Assembly (NCBI RefSeq): GCF_003018255.1
Contig: NZ_CP027440.1
Length of the DNA stretch: 64,000 nt
Source: Escherichia coli
GTDB lineage: Bacteria > Pseudomonadota > Gammaproteobacteria > Enterobacterales > Enterobacteriaceae
Reading direction: 5' to 3' (one strand)
Every line of letters begins with the position of its first letter. Positions within the stretch are counted from its first letter, which is position 1. A program made the position numbers and the translations under genes. The notes beneath the pieces were generated by a model. The model was not told the DNA's origin. It ran no database searches and saw only the letters and a list, made by a program, of their open reading frames with translations. This document shows, in pieces, positions 4,038-38,027 of this stretch.

Positions 4038-4796
4038 TCACGCCACCTCAATCTCCATCCCATCAAACCCCGCCTCAAACCCCGATGGTAGCGCGTTTTC
4101 CATCAGCCACGCATCAAACTGATGGCTGATATGGGTCAGAATCACCCGCGGCGAGCGGATAACCTGATTCAGCGCAAGCACGGTATTTAAATCACAGTGA
4201 TTACGCGGTGCATCCTCGCGCGGCGGGTGGCTGCAATCAATCACCATTACCTGCGGCTGATTATTGCGTAAAAATTTCAGCGTTTTTTCCGGCAGGCCTG
4301 CGGTGTCAGATAGCCACGCCACCCGGCTGTGCGCCGTTTCCAGTAAATAGCCGAAAGTGAGTTTTGAGTGGTTGAGCGGTAGCGGCGTGACCTGTAATCC
4401 CTGCAAATCAAACATCACAAATGGCTCCACCGTGTGGCTGAAATCAAGCAGGCCCGAATGTTTGAATAGATCGTCGCAGCCCTGTTCATCCGGCGGGCCG
4501 TAGACCGGGATCTGATCGCCCACGCCCCAGCGCAGCGGAAACAGCCCCTGCACGTGATCCATATGGTAGTGCGTCAGCAAAAACTGCTGGAACGATCCGG
4601 GCGACCAGCGATCGGCGAGATCGTGCCGCCCGGCGTCGATCAGGGTGATCGCGTCGTTAAACTTCACGACGCCGCTGCATGGCTGGCGGCGATACTGCGG
4701 TGAGCGCCGCGCTCTGACGCAGGCCACGCACTCACAGCCCCATGCGGGAACGCCCTGTGCGCCGCCAGTGCCAGTAAGTGTGAGGGTCAGGCTCAT
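4038..4796 (-). CDS. phnP: phosphoribosyl 1,2-cyclic phosphate phosphodiesterase (metallo-beta-lactamase fold)
   Basis: 252-aa ORF with HYHMDH motif; last gene of the phn operon. Confidence 0.9.
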
Positions 4797-5776: not shown

Positions 5777-6912
5777 CAGAACACCCTTTTACCCTGACGC
5801 CAGACGTGGTCGATATGAATGTGATTGCCCTTGCGATGCGCCAGCACCAGGTCGGCGCGTTTGCCCTCGCCAATCACCCCGCGATCCTGAAGATTAAGCG
5901 CCTGCGCCGGATTTTTAGTCACCAGCTTCACCGCCTGCGGCAGCGTAAAGCGGTTGCTCTCGTCATCGGCGACGCGAAATGCCGCATCGAGCAGGCTGGC
6001 GGGGTAGTAGTCGGAAGAGAGGATATCCAGCAGGCCAAGCTGCGCCAGTTCACTGGCCGCCACGTTGCCGGAGTGCGAACCGCCGCGCACGATATTCGGT
6101 GCGCCCATCAGCACGTTCATGCCATGCTTGCGCGAGGCTTCTGCCGCTTCGAACGTGGTGGGAAATTCGGCGATTACGCTGCCAAGTTGGTGAGATTCAG
6201 CAACGTGGGCGTGCGTGGCGTCATCGTGGCTGGCGAGCGCAATGTGTCGCGCGCGGCACATTGCGGCGATGGTTTCGCGATTTGGCTGCGACCAGCGTGC
6301 GGCGAGCGCCAGCTGCTCTTCTTCATACTGCTGCATCTGCGCTTCGGTGAGCGAGTATTTGCCCTGATAATATTCGCGATACTTCTCGCGGTTAGCGAAC
6401 TGGCGCTGGCCCGGCGAGTGATCCATCAGCGACACCAGCGTCACCGGTTCGCGCTGCACCAGTTTTTCAAACAGCGGCAGCGTGGTGTGATGCGGCAGTT
6501 CGCAGCGCAGATGCAGACGGTGCTCGGCGCGGTTGACGCCGCGTTTCTGCGTCTCTTCGATGGCGTTGATCATCTTCTCCAGATTCTCCAGCCGATCGCC
6601 GCCGTCGCGCACGTCGCCAATCGCCACCGCGTCCAGCACGGTGGTGATGCCGCTCGCCACCATCAGCGCGTCGTGGCTACTCATTGCCGAGTGGGCGGGC
6701 CAGTCCACTTTTGGACGCGGGGTGAAGAATTTATCCAGATTATCGGTATGCAGCTCAATCAGCCCCGGCAGCAGCCAGCCACCTTCGCCGTCCATCGCTT
6801 CCGGCTGGCGGCTCTGGCTTTCGGCAAAGGCGCGAATTTTGCCATCCTGTACTTCCAGTGAACCGTGCACCACTTCGTTTTCCAGCACCAGTTTGACGTT
6901 ATTGATAATCAT
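5776..6912 (-). CDS. phnM: amidohydrolase-family RPnTP diphosphatase
   Basis: 378-aa ORF, amidohydrolase-like; phn synteny. Confidence 0.9.
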
Positions 6913-7589
6913 GAAGAGACTCCCATTGGGTGCAGGCGGTCGGCGACGTCATTGCGTACGGCTTCGTCATGGAAGATACCGACGATGGCCGCGCCACGGG
7001 CTTTGGCTTCGCGAATTAATTCCACCACCGCGGCGCTGTTTTTAGCGTCCAGCGAGGCGGTGGGTTCATCCAGCAGCAGAATCGGATAGTCGACGATAAA
7101 GCCACGGGCGATGTTGACGCGCTGCTGTTCGCCGCCGGAGAAGGTCGATGGTGCCAGGTGCCACAGGCGTTCAGGCACGTTCAGGCGCGTCAGTAATCGG
7201 GCGGCTTTAGCGGCGCAGGCTTCACGCGGTACGCCGGTATCGAGCAGAGGCTGCATCACCACTTCCAGTGCCGAAATACGCGGGATGACGCGCAGAAACT
7301 GGCTCACCCAGCCGATGGTGGTTTTGCGGATCTCCACCACTTTGCGGGCTGGCGCGGTGACCAGGTCTACCCATTCCTCACCGTGTTTGATCTGGATTTG
7401 CCCTTCGTCGGGCAGATAGTTGGCGTACAGCGAGCGCAGCAGGGTTGATTTTCCGCTGCCGGAGTGGCCGTGAAGCACCACGCATTCGCCTGCGTTGACG
7501 GTGAGCGAGGCACGTTGTAAGACGGGCAGGCGCACGCCGTTTTGCTGATGCAGGATGAAGGTTTTACTGACGTTTTGTACGTTAATCAT
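6909..7589 (-). CDS. phnL: C-P lyase complex ABC-type ATPase
   Basis: ORF track 6909..7703; start taken at [11 protein letters not shown] (226 aa) because the upstream extension runs into a REP cluster; Walker [10 protein letters not shown]. Confidence 0.85.
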
Positions 7590-31111: not shown

Positions 31112-32164
31112 ATGATGTCTGCACCCAAAATTACATTTATCGGCGCTGGTTCGACGATTTTCGTTAAAAATATTCTTGGTGATGTGTTCCATCGCGAGGC
31201 GCTGAAAACGGCGCATATTGCCCTGATGGACATTGATCCCACCCGCCTGGAAGAGTCGCATATTGTGGTGCGCAAGCTGATGGATTCAGCAGGGGCCAGC
31301 GGCAAAATCACCTGCCACACCCAACAGAAAGAAGCCTTACAGGATGCCGATTTTGTCGTGGTGGCATTTCAGATTGGCGGTTATGAACCTTGCACGGTGA
31401 CTGATTTCGAGGTCTGTAAGCGGCATGGTCTGGAACAAACCATTGCCGATACGTTGGGGCCGGGCGGTATTATGCGCGCGCTACGTACCATTCCGCATCT
31501 GTGGCAAATTTGCGAGGACATGACGGAAGTCTGCCCCGATGCCACCATGCTCAACTACGTTAACCCAATGGCGATGAATACCTGGGCGATGTATGCCCGC
31601 TATCCGCATATCAAACAGGTAGGGCTGTGCCATTCGGTGCAGGGAACGGCGGAAGAGCTGGCGCGTGACCTCAATATCGACCCGGCTACGCTGCGTTACC
31701 GTTGCGCAGGTATCAACCATATGGCGTTTTACCTGGAACTGGAGCGCAAAACCGCCGACGGCAGTTACGTGAATCTCTACCCGGAACTGCTGGCGGTTTA
31801 TGAAGCAGGGCAGGCACCGAAGCCGAATATTCATGGCAATACTCGCTGCCAGAATATTGTGCGCTACGAAATGTTCAAAAAGCTGGGCTACTTCGTCACG
31901 GAATCGTCAGAACATTTTGCTGAGTACACGCCGTGGTTTATTAAGCCAGGTCGTGAGGATTTGATTGAGCGTTATAAAGTACCGCTGGATGAGTACCCGA
32001 AACGCTGCGTCGAGCAGCTGGCGAACTGGCATAAAGAGCTGGAGGAGTATAAGAACGCCTCCCGGATTGATATTAAACCGTCACGGGAATATGCCAGCAC
32101 AATCATGAACGCTATCTGGACTGGCGAGCCGAGTGTGATTTACGGCAACGTCCGTAACGTATAG
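31112..32164 (+). pseudogene. melA: alpha-galactosidase, 5' fragment (about 349 codons) truncated by prophage insertion
   Basis: GH4 N-terminus MMSAPKITFIGAGS; the frame ends ...IYGNVRNV* exactly where prophage-end sequence begins; full-length MelA is recalled as about 451 aa. Confidence 0.8.
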
Positions 32165-32287: not shown

Positions 32288-33025
32288 TCATTCACTCTCT
32301 TTCAAACCAGTTTTAACTGTTTGTGGTTTTGGGTAAGGCTGGACTTTGAATAGCTTTGTGTTGAGGCGTTTTCTGGCCCTCTTGTTCAGAAACCGGATGT
32401 AACGAAACTGTCGGAACTTATGCACACTGGCTCTGTCGATATTAGCCCTCAGATGTTCACCTCGTTGTCCGCCTCGTTTAATGGCACTCCTGCAAATCTC
32501 GTGATACCACTCGCCATCAAGTTCATAGAATGTTGATTCATGGCTGCCTACATAATCAAAATTGCTTGCCTGATACACGACACCAAGACAGCCACAACGC
32601 TCATCTGCAAACGACTGAACCCACTGTACCTGCGGATAAAGCTGCCTGATTAGCTTGAGCGCGTAACTGATTGCCCTTGATTCGGAGTTTCTCGGCATAC
32701 AGTCATGCATCCATAGCCGGTTAAGCTCCATATATTCTCGGTTCTGCGTACCCGTTACGACGCGTGCACCACTGTTTGGGTTAAGGGCGTAACCCCATTG
32801 CATTACGCCAACAAGTTCCCGTTCTGAAAATATACCCAGATGAAGGTAGGAATTATTTACGAAACGGTGGCTGTAATGTTTATTGACGATAACCAGTCTG
32901 GCCAGCCAGCAACTTATTGTCTCAACCCGCAACTCACGGGAGCCATAACCAACGATATTGTCGTTATAGCGAATAAGTTCAGGCGTGCTGATGATACGGG
33001 ATGTGACTTGCTTTCTGTTCCCCAC
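32288..33025 (-). CDS. mom: Mom-like DNA modification (adenine carbamoylmethylation) protein
   Basis: 245-aa ORF overlapping the 3' end of a com-like gene, last gene before the prophage end as in Mu; true start probably internal. Confidence 0.6.
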
Positions 33026-33179
33026 GACAGGATTTCCTTGTGTATGTGGGGTGCTCTGTGGCGCTCGGAGATGTGATTTGATTGAGGGTTTTACAGCGCG
33101 GACATTTTACTTCCAGATAACTGAAACTGGCCCGTGCCAGTAGCTTATTGCAGTGTCGGCACCGTATGTTTCGATACAT
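32979..33179 (-). CDS. com: Com-like zinc-finger translational activator of mom
   Basis: [14 protein letters not shown]...EVKCPRCKT... aligns with Mu Com (IRCKNCNKLL...IRCPRCK) from memory; overlaps the mom start. Confidence 0.7.
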
Positions 33180-33585
33180 GGCCGCATAACCTCCTGCTTT
33201 GTTGTTGATGCCTTTCTCATGCAATCGATCGACAAAAACGATCGATTCGATTTGTTTAATTGATACAACAAATAGATTTAAAAGTCATCAACAATGATTC
33301 AGGGCGGTGATTATTTACTTAAAGAAACGAAGAGTTAGGTGGTGAAAACGATCATAAAATGATCATTTTATTGACTTTTTATACAGTGAAGGTAGGATCG
33401 CGCGTATATGTAGTATGTTTCAAATCAACAGGATACTACATAAAAGGGAAACCCAGCATAGCTGGAACTATGCTGGGTCAATCTGTAAAAACTTGCATCA
33501 ATGCTTTACTTCGAGCTCGTGGCGTATCCTATGATATTCCCCGGTCTCCTGTAAAGCAGAGATGCATAAAAAGGAGATCTTTATC
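33180..33585. promoter_or_regulatory. AT-rich divergent control region upstream of com-mom with five GATC sites (33227, 33240, 33350, 33361, 33396)
   Basis: GATC density well above the roughly 1 per 256 bp expected by chance; position matches the methylation-sensitive region upstream of mom in Mu. Confidence 0.45.
33452..33477 (-). terminator. 10-bp-stem hairpin followed on the minus strand by a T-rich run
   Basis: cccagcatag ctggaa ctatgctggg; minus-strand downstream sequence tttcccttttta. Confidence 0.45.
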
Positions 33586-33756
33586 ATGGATAAAGAGCCT
33601 GTTTGCCCTGCCTGTAAGACTCCCTTACAGCTCATCTATCGCCGTTCTCGATCTCAAAATGGCAAGACATACAAACCAAAAAATGCTTCCTGTTTCAGGA
33701 TGCTGATATGTCCTGCCTGTTCTCCCCGGAGGGAAAATACACAAAACGTGCATTAA
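33586..33756 (+). CDS. small zinc-ribbon protein (CPAC...CPAC), the only plus-strand gene in the prophage part
   Basis: ATG 33586 preceded by AAGGAG at 33571-33576; MDKEPVCPACKTPL...MLICPACSP; ORF track 33562..33756. Confidence 0.45.
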   Translation: MDKEPVCPACKTPLQLIYRRSRSQNGKTYKPKNASCFRMLICPACSPRRENTQNVH

Positions 33757-33794
33757 CAAATTCACCCGGCAGGGAAACCTGCCGGTCGGTATTG

Positions 33795-34040
33795 TTACAT
33801 CATAGTACCGTCAGTTCCGGGTTGAACCGGCTCTGGTTGCTCTACGGGTTGAGGCTCATTTTCCGTGCTGTTTTCAGCCGGAGAACGACCAACCATTCGG
33901 GCCAGCACTTCATCAACATATGCGTCGATTTGTGCCTCAAAATCCTTGCGAACCTGCGCCTTCAGCACGCGGTTCACTTCTTCAGAATAAAGTGCCTGTT
34001 TGACAAGCTCTTCAGTAACCGTGCCTTTAATCTCTGGCAT
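33795..34040 (-). CDS. hypothetical acidic 81-aa protein
   Basis: ORF with AGGAG RBS upstream of ATG; no recognisable motif. Confidence 0.45.
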   Translation of the reverse strand: MPEIKGTVTEELVKQALYSEEVNRVLKAQVRKDFEAQIDAYVDEVLARMVGRSPAENSTENEPQPVEQPEPVQPGTDGTMM

Positions 34041-34075
34041 GAATATTCTCCTTTCCTTTTCTGGTTCACAAAAAA

Positions 34076-34255
34076 TTAAATCTGACCGGAGTCTTTCGGC
34101 TGCGGCATTACAGCACCGCTTTTTATCTTTTCCTCGGCAGCTGCATCAATTTTATTTCGAAAATAATTGCGAATAATTTTATAACCACCGCTGACAAGCA
34201 ACAGACAACAAACCACCGTGCAGAAATACAGCAGGCAGACGTTTATATATGTCAT
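34076..34255 (-). CDS. hypothetical 59-aa single-pass membrane protein
   Basis: MTYINVCLLYFCTVVCCLLLVSGGYKIIRNYF... read from the minus strand, GAGG RBS; below the ORF-track length cutoff. Confidence 0.4.
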   Translation of the reverse strand: MTYINVCLLYFCTVVCCLLLVSGGYKIIRNYFRNKIDAAAEEKIKSGAVMPQPKDSGQI

Positions 34256-34312
34256 ATAAGCCTCACTCTTATTAACTGATGTTACAGCCGGATAAATTCC
34301 CGGCCGTCACGA

Positions 34313-36361
34313 TTATGCCGCAGGGGTATTAACCTCAAGGACAACGCTCTCAAAAGACACGCCATAAGTTGCCCCTTTGGTGACATCTGTCAGTGTCAGC
34401 GTATCTTTGGCAGGGGAAAGTGCATCTTTCACCATCTGGAATGCCTGGCCCGGAGTGCCATCCAGCACAGGCGTTACCTGGGCACTTCCCGCCGTAAACT
34501 TCAGGACAAGTGTATGCCACTGGTTATTGTAGGCTCCAAATGATCCCAGTTTCGTATTCCCCCCTGTTTTATGGTGCATCAGATTTAACTGGCCGCCTGT
34601 TGTCTGGAGATAATACGCCATCAGGAACGGTGTGCCTGTACCACTCATGGTTACACCTTCCGGGACCGTATCGGTGTGGAGGTAAATACCCAGAGCAAAC
34701 TGGCCTTCTTTTACTTCACCTGACAGACGGAATTTACAGGTCAACTGACCACCATGCTTCAGAAGTTCACCGGCTGCATCAGTTCCATGGGTAAGCGTCC
34801 AGGTTTTTCCGCTTTGTTTGGATACGGTCAACGCTTTACCTTCGTCCGTCAGCTGGATTGTACCATCTGTAATTTTCCAGCCCTGAGCCGGGGCTTCTCC
34901 TGCTGATGCTTTAAGTGAAAGCAGCGTACGGAGTGACGGGGATGTCGGATGGGGGGACTCACTGCCTCCTGGCTGACTACCTGTCGGCGCTTCCGGTTTC
35001 CCACCCGGCGCGGGCTGAGGCAGGGCTTCACCATCAGGGGCCACACCGGCAATAAATGCAGAGGTCAGACCTGCATATTTAAGAATTGCTGATGCAAAAC
35101 GATCTGAGACCAGAAAACGGCGCGCCCAGGAGCTAAAATGGGTTGCCCTGGATGCTGTTGTCCAGTTGCCATCTCCCCGTGATTCCGCACCATAATACCC
35201 GGCAGAAGCGATATCCGGGTCGTGCTCCGGCAGGTTGGTCGCGGTTTTATTACCGAACTCATCGTGCATCAGTGGAACAAAGTGAATGTTCTCGGAAGCC
35301 CGGTTTTTATATCCGCTATAAATGGTTTCATATGCCGCCGGGTTCTTCTCTTTCCAGTCATAGGTTGTGTCACCACATAACCACGGCACACTGTCTGATG
35401 AACCACCAATACACTGACCGGAGAAAGCACCAAGATCCGCACGGAATTTTTTCACCATCGCAGTAAACTGGGCACCATGCTGGGCCGGGGTCGCTTTAAG
35501 GTCTCCTTCCCCCTGAATCCATACGACAGATAACAGCACATTCTTTGGATTCGCCTCAAGTGCCGCTTTAGTTCGACTGACAAGATCCTGATACAGTGGG
35601 GTATCCACTCCCCAGCGTAGTGACGCCTCGGCTGCACCACTTGCCGGATCGAATGAGCCAACTGCGCCGGTTGTAAAAGCAGAGCCGCCACGGGCACAGG
35701 GAACCAGTAAAATCCCGGCATCAGCAGGAATCACCGGTAATACTTTTTTCGCAATATGAAGTCCCTGCCCCACACAACCATACTGCCCTTTTTTCAGGTC
35801 TGCTTTTGGATGGTTCAGCAGACTCATATTCTGAACATCATGAAGGCAGTGATCTGCTGGAATGATTTCATTGTATTTGCAGGGAATACCTCCGGGGGTT
35901 TGTGTATTCCTGCGTGCCAGCTGCATAATACGTGGATCAGGACGATCATAAGAATCCGGAAGGGGCAACCCTTCACCATAAGATGAAGCATTGGACTGGC
36001 CGGCTATAACAATCACGTAATACCAGGAAGGGGAGCTGGAAGCAGTTTCATTTCCTGACGGACGGGTATGTGTTTCAGCATTATCCCAGTCTGACGGTTC
36101 AGCAGTACCGGCAACATCAGCACTTAACGGAATGACCGCACCAATACCCGCTCCGGTAATTTCCACACTCGGATCACCGGATACTGGCCTTACCCACAGG
36201 CAATCCCGTGTATTAAAACTGATGAGACAGTCAGCAAATGTCATTCCTCCTTTTGTTTCGGCCGGAGGAAAGGGAGCCTCAAGAAATGCCGCTGTACCAC
36301 CGGAAACTTTAACAGTAAAGTTTCCGGGCATTGATGATAGTTGAACCCATTTGGACGTCAT
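34313..36361 (-). CDS. SGNH/SASA-type sialate O-acetylesterase-like protein with C-terminal beta-rich putative carbohydrate-binding domain (resembles prophage NanS-p family)
   Basis: 682-aa ORF; IAGQSNASSYG esterase signature, Pro-rich linker, about 200-aa C-terminal domain; no signal peptide. Confidence 0.55.
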   Translation of the reverse strand: MTSKWVQLSSMPGNFTVKVSGGTAAFLEAPFPPAETKGGMTFADCLISFNTRDCLWVRPVSGDPSVEITGAGIGAVIPLSADVAGTAEPSDWDNAETHTRPSGNETASSSPSWYYVIVIAGQSNASSYGEGLPLPDSYDRPDPRIMQLARRNTQTPGGIPCKYNEIIPADHCLHDVQNMSLLNHPKADLKKGQYGCVGQGLHIAKKVLPVIPADAGILLVPCARGGSAFTTGAVGSFDPASGAAEASLRWGVDTPLYQDLVSRTKAALEANPKNVLLSVVWIQGEGDLKATPAQHGAQFTAMVKKFRADLGAFSGQCIGGSSDSVPWLCGDTTYDWKEKNPAAYETIYSGYKNRASENIHFVPLMHDEFGNKTATNLPEHDPDIASAGYYGAESRGDGNWTTASRATHFSSWARRFLVSDRFASAILKYAGLTSAFIAGVAPDGEALPQPAPGGKPEAPTGSQPGGSESPHPTSPSLRTLLSLKASAGEAPAQGWKITDGTIQLTDEGKALTVSKQSGKTWTLTHGTDAAGELLKHGGQLTCKFRLSGEVKEGQFALGIYLHTDTVPEGVTMSGTGTPFLMAYYLQTTGGQLNLMHHKTGGNTKLGSFGAYNNQWHTLVLKFTAGSAQVTPVLDGTPGQAFQMVKDALSPAKDTLTLTDVTKGATYGVSFESVVLEVNTPAA

Positions 36362-36460: not shown

Positions 36461-37021
36461 TTATTTTTCCGAAACGCTCGCAGGATAATAACGATAAAGG
36501 GTTGAAAGACCGATATCAAAAATAAGTGCCACCTGTCTTCGACTGACACCCCCGGCCAGTAAACGCCCGACCTGCTCGTATTGTTCCTGCGTGAGACGGC
36601 GGGGTCTGCCGCCGGTTCGTCCCCTTTCACGGGCAGCTGCAAGACCAGCCCGTGTCCGTTCGACAATTAATTCACGCTCCATTTCTGCCAGCGCACCCAT
36701 TATGTGAAAAAAGAAACGCCCCATGGGGGTTGACGTATCAATGTTGTCAGTAAGACTACGAAAATTTATCCCCTGTTGCTGTAATTCATCTGTCAGCGCA
36801 ACAAGGTGGCGCATACTGCGCCCCAGCCTGTCCAGTTTCCAGACCATCAGTGTGTCACCGGGTTTTAGTTTCTTCAGTGCCCGCTTCAGTCCCGGCCGCT
36901 GTGTCGTTTTACCACTCATTTTGTCTTCAAAAATCTGCTCACATCCTGCACATTCCAGCGCATTTCTTTGTAAACCGGTGTTCTGGTCATTTGTTGATAC
37001 GCGTATATAGCCAATCAGCAT
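36461..37021 (-). CDS. gin: serine DNA invertase of the Gin/Hin/Cin/Pin family
   Basis: MLIGYIRVSTNDQNTGLQRNAL...GRFFFHIMGALAEMERELI aligns closely with Mu Gin (recalled); adjacent to the invertible segment. Confidence 0.9.
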   Translation of the reverse strand: MLIGYIRVSTNDQNTGLQRNALECAGCEQIFEDKMSGKTTQRPGLKRALKKLKPGDTLMVWKLDRLGRSMRHLVALTDELQQQGINFRSLTDNIDTSTPMGRFFFHIMGALAEMERELIVERTRAGLAAARERGRTGGRPRRLTQEQYEQVGRLLAGGVSRRQVALIFDIGLSTLYRYYPASVSEK

Positions 37022-37076: not shown

Positions 37077-37102
37077 TCCCTGAAAACCTCGGTTTACGGG
37101 AA
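37077..37102. promoter_or_regulatory. gix-like recombination site, gin-proximal (crossover core TC at 37089-37090)
   Basis: tccctgaaaacc tc ggtttacgggaa matches the gix/hix consensus TTATCCAAAACC TC GGTTTACAGGAA (recalled). Confidence 0.65.
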
Positions 37103-37471
37103 ACGGTAAATAAGGCTGCTGATGCCCTGCCATCGGGTGGAACCGCCGTGGCAGCAAACAGACTCGCCACCCCAAGAAATATTAATGGCGTTCCTTTTGA
37201 CGGAACGCAGGATATCAACATCACGTCAGGAATGACGCAGTCAACCGCAGATGGCCGGTATGTACAGAATGTTCAGCTTGGAGCACAGAGCTATCATTCA
37301 CCCGGAGGCAATGAAATATCATGGAATTACAGCGCACCTTCCGGTTGTATGCTTTCCGGTATTAACGTGCAGGAAACCGGCTCCCGGTCTGCGGACAATA
37401 TCGGTGGGGTCTATTATCGCCCGGTTCAGATTTATATTAATAATGCCTGGAGAACGGTAAGTTCAGTGTAA
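37091..37471 (+). CDS. promoterless alternative tail-fibre C-terminal cassette (S'v-like) inside the invertible segment
   Basis: Open frame from the gix core: GLRETVNKAADALPSGGTAVAANRLATPRNINGVPFDGTQDINITSGMTQS... shares its first 50 codons with the expressed fibre then diverges; ORF track 37148..37471. Confidence 0.6.
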   Translation, partial: GLRETVNKAADALPSGGTAVAANRLATPRNINGVPFDGTQDINITSGMTQSTADGRYVQNVQLGAQSYHSPGGNEISWNYSAPSGCMLSGINVQETGSRSADNIGGVYYRPVQIYINNAWRTVSSV

Positions 37472-37505
37472 ACCACAGAAAAGGGTGCTGAATGCACCCT
37501 CTGAA

Positions 37506-38027
37506 TTATTCCGGTTTTTCCGGCCAGGGAATCGCCTGGTAATGCCCCTCACTGGCAATATCATTAAAGTGCATTTCTTTAAGCTGTCGGATATACGCCA
37601 TCCAGCGCGTCAGCTGTAATTTATTTTCATCGCTAATCATGTCCAGTTTTAATTCTGTTTTCCAGTCATCCACGGTTTCGTTGGCTTCCTGGAGCAGCGA
37701 TGAGCGACGCTTTTCAGCAACCGTCTTCCAGTTTACCGGCACCTTTGATATCAGGCCATCAGAAAACTGCCAGTTACCGTCAATATTCACACCTTCCGGC
37801 AGTTCGTCCACTTCAACAACAGTAAAACCTGCCGGATATAAAGCAGAGACATCTTCAGCAACAGAGCAGATAATACCCGTTACAGGCGAAATACAGAGTT
37901 TGTATTTCTTTGTGAAAAGCGGGATAGATTCATAAAAATCCCTTCCGTCCTCACTCTGGAAATACTGAACATCCTCACCATAGGGTTTGTGTTCCGGGTA
38001 ATATCGTTTTACGTTAATAAGCTCCAT
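37506..38027 (-). CDS. tail fibre assembly (chaperone) protein, U-like
   Basis: ORF track 37506..38138; start at MELINVKRYYPEH (AAGGTG RBS); downstream of the fibre gene. Confidence 0.7.
   Translation of the reverse strand: MELINVKRYYPEHKPYGEDVQYFQSEDGRDFYESIPLFTKKYKLCISPVTGIICSVAEDVSALYPAGFTVVEVDELPEGVNIDGNWQFSDGLISKVPVNWKTVAEKRRSSLLQEANETVDDWKTELKLDMISDENKLQLTRWMAYIRQLKEMHFNDIASEGHYQAIPWPEKPE

Follow-up and report, generated by a model that had tools for sequence, protein, structure and literature searches.

Three small genes at the right end of a Mu-like prophage of Escherichia coli belong to two separate accessory units

Small open reading frames (ORFs) that crowd together at the edge of a prophage raise two questions: are they genes, and do they belong together? 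We addressed both for a locus in a stretch of 64,000 nucleotides of Escherichia coli contig NZ_CP027440.1 (assembly GCF_003018255.1), called the window below. A sequence-only reading had listed three small ORFs beside an esterase gene, encoding a 59-residue membrane protein (34076-34255, minus strand), an 81-residue acidic protein (33795-34040, minus strand) and a 56-residue zinc-ribbon protein (33586-33756, plus strand). All three are exactly as listed, and each has a good ribosome-binding site (GAGG for the 59-residue ORF, AAGGAG at a spacing of 8-9 nt for the other two). The analysis reported here shows that they are real genes and that they form two independent accessory units, which meet at the right end of a Mu-like prophage. 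The first is a cassette in which the 59- and 81-residue proteins, members of the Pfam families DUF1378 and DUF826, follow the esterase. The second is the zinc-ribbon gene, which stands behind a structured leader. They are ordinary prophage accessory content, and no new kind of system is involved. Taken as a whole, with the roles proposed below, we hold this explanation with moderate confidence. Related loci in other prophages and phages are referred to by L numbers.

The plus-strand ORF has a conflicting annotation. Its product carries two CPAC motifs, at residues 7-10 and 42-45, as had been noticed, and the four cysteines (C7, C10, C42 and C45) make up a C4 set. The 56-residue protein corresponds to the C-terminal third of an ORF annotated as the 154-residue protein ECs4996 in O157 Sakai. 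RefSeq annotation (PGAP, the prokaryotic genome annotation pipeline) marks 33294-33756 as "frameshifted" relative to this 154-residue protein, which is intact in many strains. The alleles of the locus argue for the short gene. The 56-codon ORF is open in 13 of 13 distinct alleles, and the stretch upstream of it carries several non-triplet insertions or deletions and is broken at varying places. Eleven distinct substitutions fall within the ORF. Seven are synonymous and four non-synonymous in its own frame, for an expected synonymous fraction of 0.22 (P = 0.004), and each of the other five frames makes only 2-3 of the same 11 synonymous.

A distant orthologue gives independent evidence. An exhaustive HMMER search of 1.84 billion representative proteins returned P0005 as the sole distant homologue (47% identity, E 3e-7). 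Its cluster counts 59 members, all from Salmonella enterica and 52-53 residues long (for example UniRef A0A379QYM7_SALER). The Salmonella gene occupies the same position in Mu-like prophages; it diverges from com, has the same leader and the same ribosome-binding site in front of it, and its product shares the CxxC...CxxC spacing and a GKTY.P motif. It has its own strong canonical terminator, the frame upstream is shut by a stop, and only the 52-53-residue gene is called. What follows it differs from the window: an operon encoding proteins of 100, 81 and 122 residues, a convergent ORF of 130 residues, or an esterase gene without the DUF1378 and DUF826 genes. Between the window and the Salmonella gene, the proportion of non-synonymous differences (pN) is 0.32 and that of synonymous differences (pS) is 0.78, which is saturated. 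In an alignment of 19 sequences, C7, C10, C45 and the GKTY.P loop are invariant and C42 is nearly so (Tyr in P0082), while C36 is not conserved. These sequence comparisons indicate that the zinc-ribbon ORF is a genuine short monocistronic gene under purifying selection. It is a mis-annotated member of a narrow, unnamed family present in E. coli, Shigella and Salmonella.

Several observations weigh against this view of the gene. ECs4996 (RefSeq WP_115801860) lies at the same locus and its last 55 residues are the zinc-ribbon protein. The window lacks a G present there at 33591 and an A at 33324, so that only the 56-residue ORF is open. In the commonest E. coli allele this extra G fuses the leader and zinc-ribbon frames into one uninterrupted 154-residue ORF. 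The corresponding cluster counts 205 proteins from at least 1000 contigs, and L022 and L013 carry the ORF intact. A different change, an 11-bp deletion in L021, joins the same two frames. An upstream ORF of 115 residues is matched by phrog_26524. At a zinc ligand, allele L015 carries the replacement C7Y. Finally, neither profile nor fold searches gave the short protein a significant match: Pfam gave no match at E <= 0.001 with either the single sequence or the 19-sequence alignment, PDB sequence and profile searches gave nothing significant (a GATA-finger-like stretch appeared at E 1.6), and Foldseek comparison of its model with PDB and BFVD gave nothing at E <= 0.001.

The fusions, the PGAP call and the PHROG match would fit a real 154-residue gene of the ECs4996 type, of which the window retains a C-terminal remnant after frameshifting. 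This is improbable in light of how the upstream part behaves. It is broken differently from allele to allele, by non-triplet changes, and most of its substitutions are non-synonymous. Compensatory changes in its hairpins, described below, rewrite the supposed protein, and in the Salmonella copies a stop closes the frame. Prophages with other genes at this site keep the upstream DNA without any zinc-ribbon ORF; their homology to the window ends at about 33563-33567, immediately ahead of the AAGGAG, that is, at the ribosome-binding site of the short gene. Nucleotide identity to Salmonella is higher in the leader (78%) than in the ORF (59%). We therefore favour the short gene. As read from these alignments, the N-terminal 100 residues of ECs4996 are probably translated leader rather than protein, and the 154-residue ORF would be an artefact running through a non-coding structured leader.

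This leader spans about 180 nt of the plus strand (33405-33585) and has a predicted minimum free energy of -69.9 kcal/mol (z = -6.8). It comprises three stem-loops, SL1 (33407-33442), SL2 (33451-33478) and SL3 (33494-33566), followed by a hairpin of 8 bp (33578-33596) whose loop contains the AUG. SL2 is kept across variants through at least six different, covarying stem sequences, and SL3 is kept with compensatory changes; leader alleles carry frameshifting insertions and deletions. SL2 had been read as a terminator-like hairpin (33452-33477) at which the two minus-strand genes end. The hairpin is real, with a 10-bp stem, but it does not end those genes. It lies 318 nt past the DUF826 stop codon, beyond the zinc-ribbon gene and within the upstream leader of that gene. 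The leader and the hairpin that holds the AUG in its loop probably keep down translation of the zinc-ribbon protein. Rfam, searched over 32900-34400, gave one sub-threshold match, taken as chance. A scan of one genome per species with the leader pattern gave 26 matches, all in unrelated taxa and judged to be chance. In the leaders of some relatives (L006 at 4300-4480, L030 and L035), a unit of about 95 bp containing SL2 and the first half of SL3 is duplicated in tandem, which suggests recombination at this element.

Fold-energy comparison shows that the leader hairpins fold equally well on both strands, which counts against our reading of a plus-strand leader; action on the minus strand, as an insulating terminator before the mom promoter or as a small antisense RNA, is possible. 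Pushed further, the functional element between com and DUF826 would be an RNA, either a cis-antisense small RNA ended by SL2 or a terminator that insulates the toxic mom operon, and the ORF would be incidental. A promoter-like site on the minus strand (TTTACA-N18-TAGGAT, 33555-33526), the terminator-like appearance of SL2 on that strand in a terminator scan, the covariation of the hairpins and the higher conservation of the leader are all in line with such an RNA. The excess of synonymous changes, the orthologue with 47% identity and the conserved cysteines and GKTY.P loop nevertheless show selection on a protein, and the minus-strand T-run after SL2 is weak or absent in several variants. Moreover, an RNA element and a protein gene can coexist. 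We consider it very improbable that the ORF is incidental, and retain the reading of a protein gene behind its leader.

Upstream of the leader, a consensus scan identified a sigma-70-like promoter on the plus strand (TTGACT-N16-TAGGAT, 33371-33398), whose function is inferred. A GATC at 33396-33399 overlaps the 3' end of its -10 element; two others are found at 33350-33353 and 33361-33364. The Salmonella locus L023 and the M18 variant L007 both keep the TTGACT and TAnGATC elements, and GATC overlaps the -10 element in all three. On the debit side, promoter matches in the region occur at chance level (3 found for 2.8 expected). On the opposite strand, 27 bp away and back to back with this site, lies a sequence that resembles the mom promoter of Mu and may act as its equivalent (Pmom-like; ACCACC, a T-rich spacer and TAAGTA, 33316-33343). 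In the scheme we propose, the zinc-ribbon gene would be transcribed from the sigma-70 promoter back to back with Pmom, as a counterpart of Mu momP2, and the GATC in the -10 element suggests that this promoter may be sensitive to Dam methylation.

The region also contains a perfect palindrome, AATCGATCGACAAAAACGATCGATT, at 33223-33247. Positioned 44-68 nt upstream of where com starts, it includes two GATC sites; it falls within the com leader if Pmom is placed as above, and it resembles part of the GATC-rich mom control region of Mu. In L002 (4774-6025), L023 (4398-5610), L035 and L040, mom is replaced by a gene for a C5 cytosine DNA methyltransferase (PF00145), and the overlapping com is kept. 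Com-type translational control may thus be reused for a different DNA-modification enzyme.

What might the zinc-ribbon protein do? It is basic (isoelectric point 9.8, with 11 K+R against 3 D+E), and its two CxxC knuckles are conserved across homologues, as expected of a C4 zinc ribbon; zinc binding itself is a prediction. AlphaFold2 models it as a beta-rich fold of four strands (pLDDT, the predicted local distance difference test score, 79) that has no significant structural neighbour. In BFVD, models labelled "restriction alleviation" were reached only at E ~3. NCBIfam has no family for the protein, and PHROGs gave only a marginal match (E 0.008). A word-indexed search of 5.8 billion proteins returned near-identical E. 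coli entries only, and a peptide-pattern scan of viral contigs likewise returned near-identical copies only. Three known types of small zinc protein were considered. Com was set aside: Zn_ribbon_Com (PF10122) gave no match even at E <= 10, and a BLASTP match to the neighbouring Com covered 13 residues. Com is also a small C4 zinc protein, but its cysteine pairs are spaced by about 16 residues, compared with 31 in the zinc-ribbon protein. Neither the Ogr/Delta family of late activators nor that of the restriction alleviation protein Lar appeared in the Pfam output at E <= 10.

The zinc-ribbon protein is basic and contains a conserved basic loop, its gene fills a replaceable slot beside a DNA-modification operon, and its translation seems to be restrained. 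On these grounds we tentatively view it as a non-essential accessory factor that would bind nucleic acid. Its role could be in regulation or in counter-defence, both of which are possible.

The slot itself is variable. After the same leader, prophages carry different cargo: a zinc-ribbon gene of the E. coli or the Salmonella type, a gene for a 68-residue protein, or one for a 175-residue protein (alternative cargo at L005 4409-4776, L006 4487-4856 and L007 4399-4926). The 68-residue helical protein is encoded convergently with a 66-residue ORF, overlapping the 3' end of the latter. The 175-residue product combines a zinc ribbon with a transmembrane segment. All plus-strand cargo genes except that one begin with MDK. 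None of the alternative cargo proteins matched a known family or defence system. In L023, the Salmonella zinc-ribbon gene is followed at 6362-7274 by a three-gene operon encoding proteins of 100, 81 and 122 residues; the last of these matches phrog_5954 and, weakly, the PADLOC model PD-T4-7 (E 0.0025). The zinc-ribbon gene had been grouped with the two minus-strand genes. It is instead a separate, convergent, monocistronic gene in a variable cargo slot by com and mom.

A bolder proposal would make the promoter and leader by Pmom a dedicated platform for exchangeable counter-defence or host-interaction cargo, derived from momP2 and maybe Dam-sensitive. On that view the zinc-ribbon protein would be a new factor that binds nucleic acid and either modulates expression of the adjacent DNA-modification operon (mom or the C5 methyltransferase) or relieves host restriction. 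We regard this extended version as speculative and unlikely as it stands.

The first unit runs along the minus strand in the order esterase, DUF1378, DUF826 and hairpin. Its first gene (34313-36361) encodes a 682-residue NanS-p-type carbohydrate esterase, with Pfam matches to SASA (E 7.5e-13) and DUF6645 (E 2e-25) and a match to phrog_143 (E 2e-273). By domain homology, the protein is a putative sialate 9-O-acetylesterase. Its residues 1-115 have no Pfam match and the N-terminal DUF1737 domain is absent, so any attachment to the virion must use another domain. The sequence-only reading found none of the three small proteins assignable by eye. That holds for inspection by eye, but two of them are clear members of Pfam families. 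The 59-residue protein (34076-34255) matches DUF1378 (PF07125, E 1e-23; residues 1-48 aligned to model positions 1-48 of 59) and phrog_494 (E 4e-29), and RefSeq calls it "DUF1378 family protein". The 81-residue protein (33795-34040) matches DUF826 (PF05696, E 3.4e-15; residues 1-52 aligned to model positions 1-52 of 75) and phrog_311 (E 5e-30), and its RefSeq name agrees.

The two proteins are of different types. That of DUF1378 is a predicted membrane protein, as had been proposed, with a hydrophobic segment at residues 3-23 (grand average of hydropathy, GRAVY, 2.15), which forms one N-terminal transmembrane helix followed by a basic, charged C-terminal helix. AlphaFold2 predicts a single long helix over residues 2-46. 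By the positive-inside rule, it would be a single-pass inner-membrane protein with its N-terminus out and its basic tail in the cytoplasm. Relatives were found by tblastn in 309 phage records, mostly of Shiga toxin (Stx) phages. The DUF826 protein is acidic (isoelectric point 4.37), again as proposed, and has a helical N-terminal domain (1-52), a Pro/Glu-rich tail and a conserved ...TMM at its end. It would be a soluble, acidic helical protein. Its named homologues were found in E. coli and Shigella only, each under the name "DUF826 domain-containing protein".

The zinc-ribbon gene and DUF826 converge, with 38 nt between their stop codons, and a hairpin, CCGGCAGG-GAAA-CCTGCCGG (33766-33785), fills this gap. 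It probably acts as a terminator in both directions and closes the esterase cassette. A hairpin stands directly 3' of DUF826 in other loci too: in L005, L006 and L007, where it has a T-run, and in L003, L004 and L048, which are lambdoid phages. The trio of esterase, DUF1378 and DUF826 genes is present in every examined E. coli Mu-like relative (L001, L002, L005-L007 and L018-L022), and the gene order is identical in the lambdoid phages L003, L004, L047, L048 and L049, where the trio lies between stx (or Q) and the holin gene S. Mosaic recombination has occurred within it: homology to L002 stops at 34054, between DUF1378 and DUF826. The same block, with a terminator-type hairpin, recurs in both phage types and so looks like an independent accessory unit carried from one phage backbone to another, unrelated one. 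ORFs of DUF826 and DUF1378 were noted in passing, without function, between nanS-p and S (PMC10462455). Our literature search for the two families in the nanS-p context returned this paper only, and it gives no function for either.

Since the DUF1378-DUF826 pair accompanies the esterase in two unrelated types of phage, and away from lysis cassettes, we tie it to the esterase and not to lysis. Most likely the two proteins serve the esterase, for example in its membrane-proximal handling, release or maturation. A lysis function would make them a holin-like or antiholin protein with a cytoplasmic partner, or a modulator of lysis timing, and the link to the esterase would be one of position only. 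In lambdoid phages the pair does lie directly upstream of holin S and endolysin, and the DUF1378 protein has the shape of a holin (small, one transmembrane helix, a charged C-terminus), which is generic rather than holin-specific. Two results tell against the tie to the esterase. The Salmonella-type relative L035 has the esterase without the pair, which is thus not obligatory for the enzyme, and an AlphaFold2 model of the linked DUF1378 and DUF826 proteins gave low confidence and no confident complex (pLDDT 52; predicted template modelling score, pTM, 0.20). At that confidence, the model is evidence neither for nor against a complex. In all examined Mu-like relatives that carry the pair, however, it lies beside the esterase, between the invertase gene and com/mom, with no adjacent holin or endolysin gene. 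In lambdoid phages a terminator separates DUF826 from S, and no holin family was matched in Pfam or PHROGs. A lysis role is therefore rather unlikely in our judgement, and service to the esterase stands as the preferred role. An apparent natural fusion of DUF1378 with DUF826 (phrog_8301; a 124-residue "head completion protein" in L047) proved to be an over-extended ORF call, with DUF1378 intact in another frame.

All three small genes had been suggested to be toxin-antitoxin, exclusion or regulatory modules. They are indeed accessory rather than core phage genes. Related prophages conserve each of the three frames, which answers the refuting condition of poor conservation that the sequence-only reading had named. 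In a variable part of a prophage, small proteins of the membrane, acidic and zinc-ribbon kinds would suit toxin-antitoxin or superinfection-exclusion modules, and sibling slots do hold small gene pairs, such as the convergent genes for 68 and 66 residues. At E <= 0.1, however, none of the three proteins matched a defence or toxin-antitoxin model of PADLOC-DB. The DUF1378 and DUF826 genes are fixed partners in a block behind the SASA esterase rather than a two-gene toxin-antitoxin pair or an independent exclusion module. As for the zinc-ribbon gene, no toxin-antitoxin or defence family matches it; it is monocistronic, has no adjacent partner, and its downstream neighbours vary among prophages. 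Such modules are quite improbable here, and we keep to an esterase cassette and a separate cargo gene.

The prophage whose right end the window carries is a transposable, Mu-like one of the Sp18 type. It is inserted in melA, and its forward direction runs along the minus strand of the window. At the far side of the small genes lie com, encoding the zinc-finger translational activator of mom (32979-33179, minus strand; phrog_6417, phrog_13819 and RefSeq), and mom itself (32288-33025, minus strand; phrog_1384 "Mom-like" and RefSeq annotation), which overlap. Left of mom is the insertion point, where melA (31112-32164) is truncated, cut at about 32160 by the prophage end. On the other side of the esterase cassette is a gene for a Gin-type invertase (36461-37021). 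The 1.2 kb around the small ORFs recur unchanged (100% identity) across dozens of E. coli genomes, for the most part from strains that make Shiga toxin (STEC), and the host genes that flank them vary by strain (hyf, elf/FimD, paa, lsrC and even other prophages). Such varied neighbours of one prophage end imply Mu-type transposition. We assign the lineage to Sp18 of O157 Sakai because the long ORF at the locus is annotated there as ECs4996. Sp18 has been predicted to be an intact Mu-like prophage (PMC2669165). A literature search on ECs4994-4997 found nothing, and one on EcOnc/Sp18 found unrelated papers only. Beside the invertase gene, a segment of the tail-fibre and tail-fibre-assembly region (37085-38027) has the opposite orientation in the prophage of NZ_CP038333 (L001), which is near-identical otherwise. 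This is consistent with an active, invertible G-like segment, in which the strand of the genes is not fixed. The sequence-only reading had called the zinc-ribbon gene the only plus-strand gene of the prophage part, a description that may not hold for a segment of changeable orientation.

None of these findings is very surprising for prophage biology. Their immediate use is a correction of annotation: genomes of E. coli O157 and of many other STEC list this locus as a 154-residue protein or as a "frameshifted pseudogene", and the evidence favours a zinc-ribbon gene of 55-56 residues behind a structured leader. DUF1378 and DUF826 are uncharacterised families already on record, as is their cassette; the host phage is what is unusual. 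The block has been transferred between lambdoid and Mu-like phages, and no better clue is available that the two proteins work with a NanS-p-type esterase. Esterases of this type have been linked to the use of mucin sialic acid by STEC and were recently reported as capsid decoration. The variable slot by mom lends itself to a search for new small accessory proteins of phages, which makes it a modest lead.

Both units have counterparts in known systems. The lambdoid Stx phages hold the closest relatives of the cassette (for example gp72 and gp71 of Stx2a_WGPS2, and AU6Stx1_430 and _440), with the same Pfam families, the same order and likewise a terminator hairpin after DUF826. Identity to the lambdoid proteins is about 48-54% for DUF1378 and about 50% over the domain for DUF826; searched against phages at the level of DNA, the small genes showed no similarity to the lambdoid copies. 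The cassette here differs in its Mu-like host, in its place between the invertase gene and com/mom and in having no holin or endolysin gene after it. The esterase also differs from the lambdoid NanS-p protein gp84 of phi24B, for which a capsid-binding DUF1737 N-terminus has been reported.

For the cargo gene, the first comparison is with Mu. The Pmom region of Mu contains GATC sites, TTATG, ACCACA, a T6 run and TAAGAT, and the site in the window is similar. Mu also has a divergent, overlapping promoter, momP2, in its mom control region (PMC3378877). There momP2 and Pmom stand back to back with GATC sites between them, as does the promoter-like pair of the window. To our knowledge, the momP2 transcript has no assigned product. 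Mu has no gene annotated between gin and com, unlike the window, and a DNA search with the com and leader region gave no similarity to Mu itself.

The second comparison is with the morons and anti-defence slots found in temperate phages, of which the anti-CRISPR loci in Mu-like phages of Pseudomonas are an example. As in a moron locus, the same site is occupied by other genes in close relatives. Terminator hairpins are present, and the putative promoter is a conserved match to the consensus. Unlike anti-CRISPR loci, the slot has no cargo that matches a known defence or anti-defence family and no Aca-like regulator. What it shares with such slots is a conserved upstream expression region followed by interchangeable small genes, each with a terminator.

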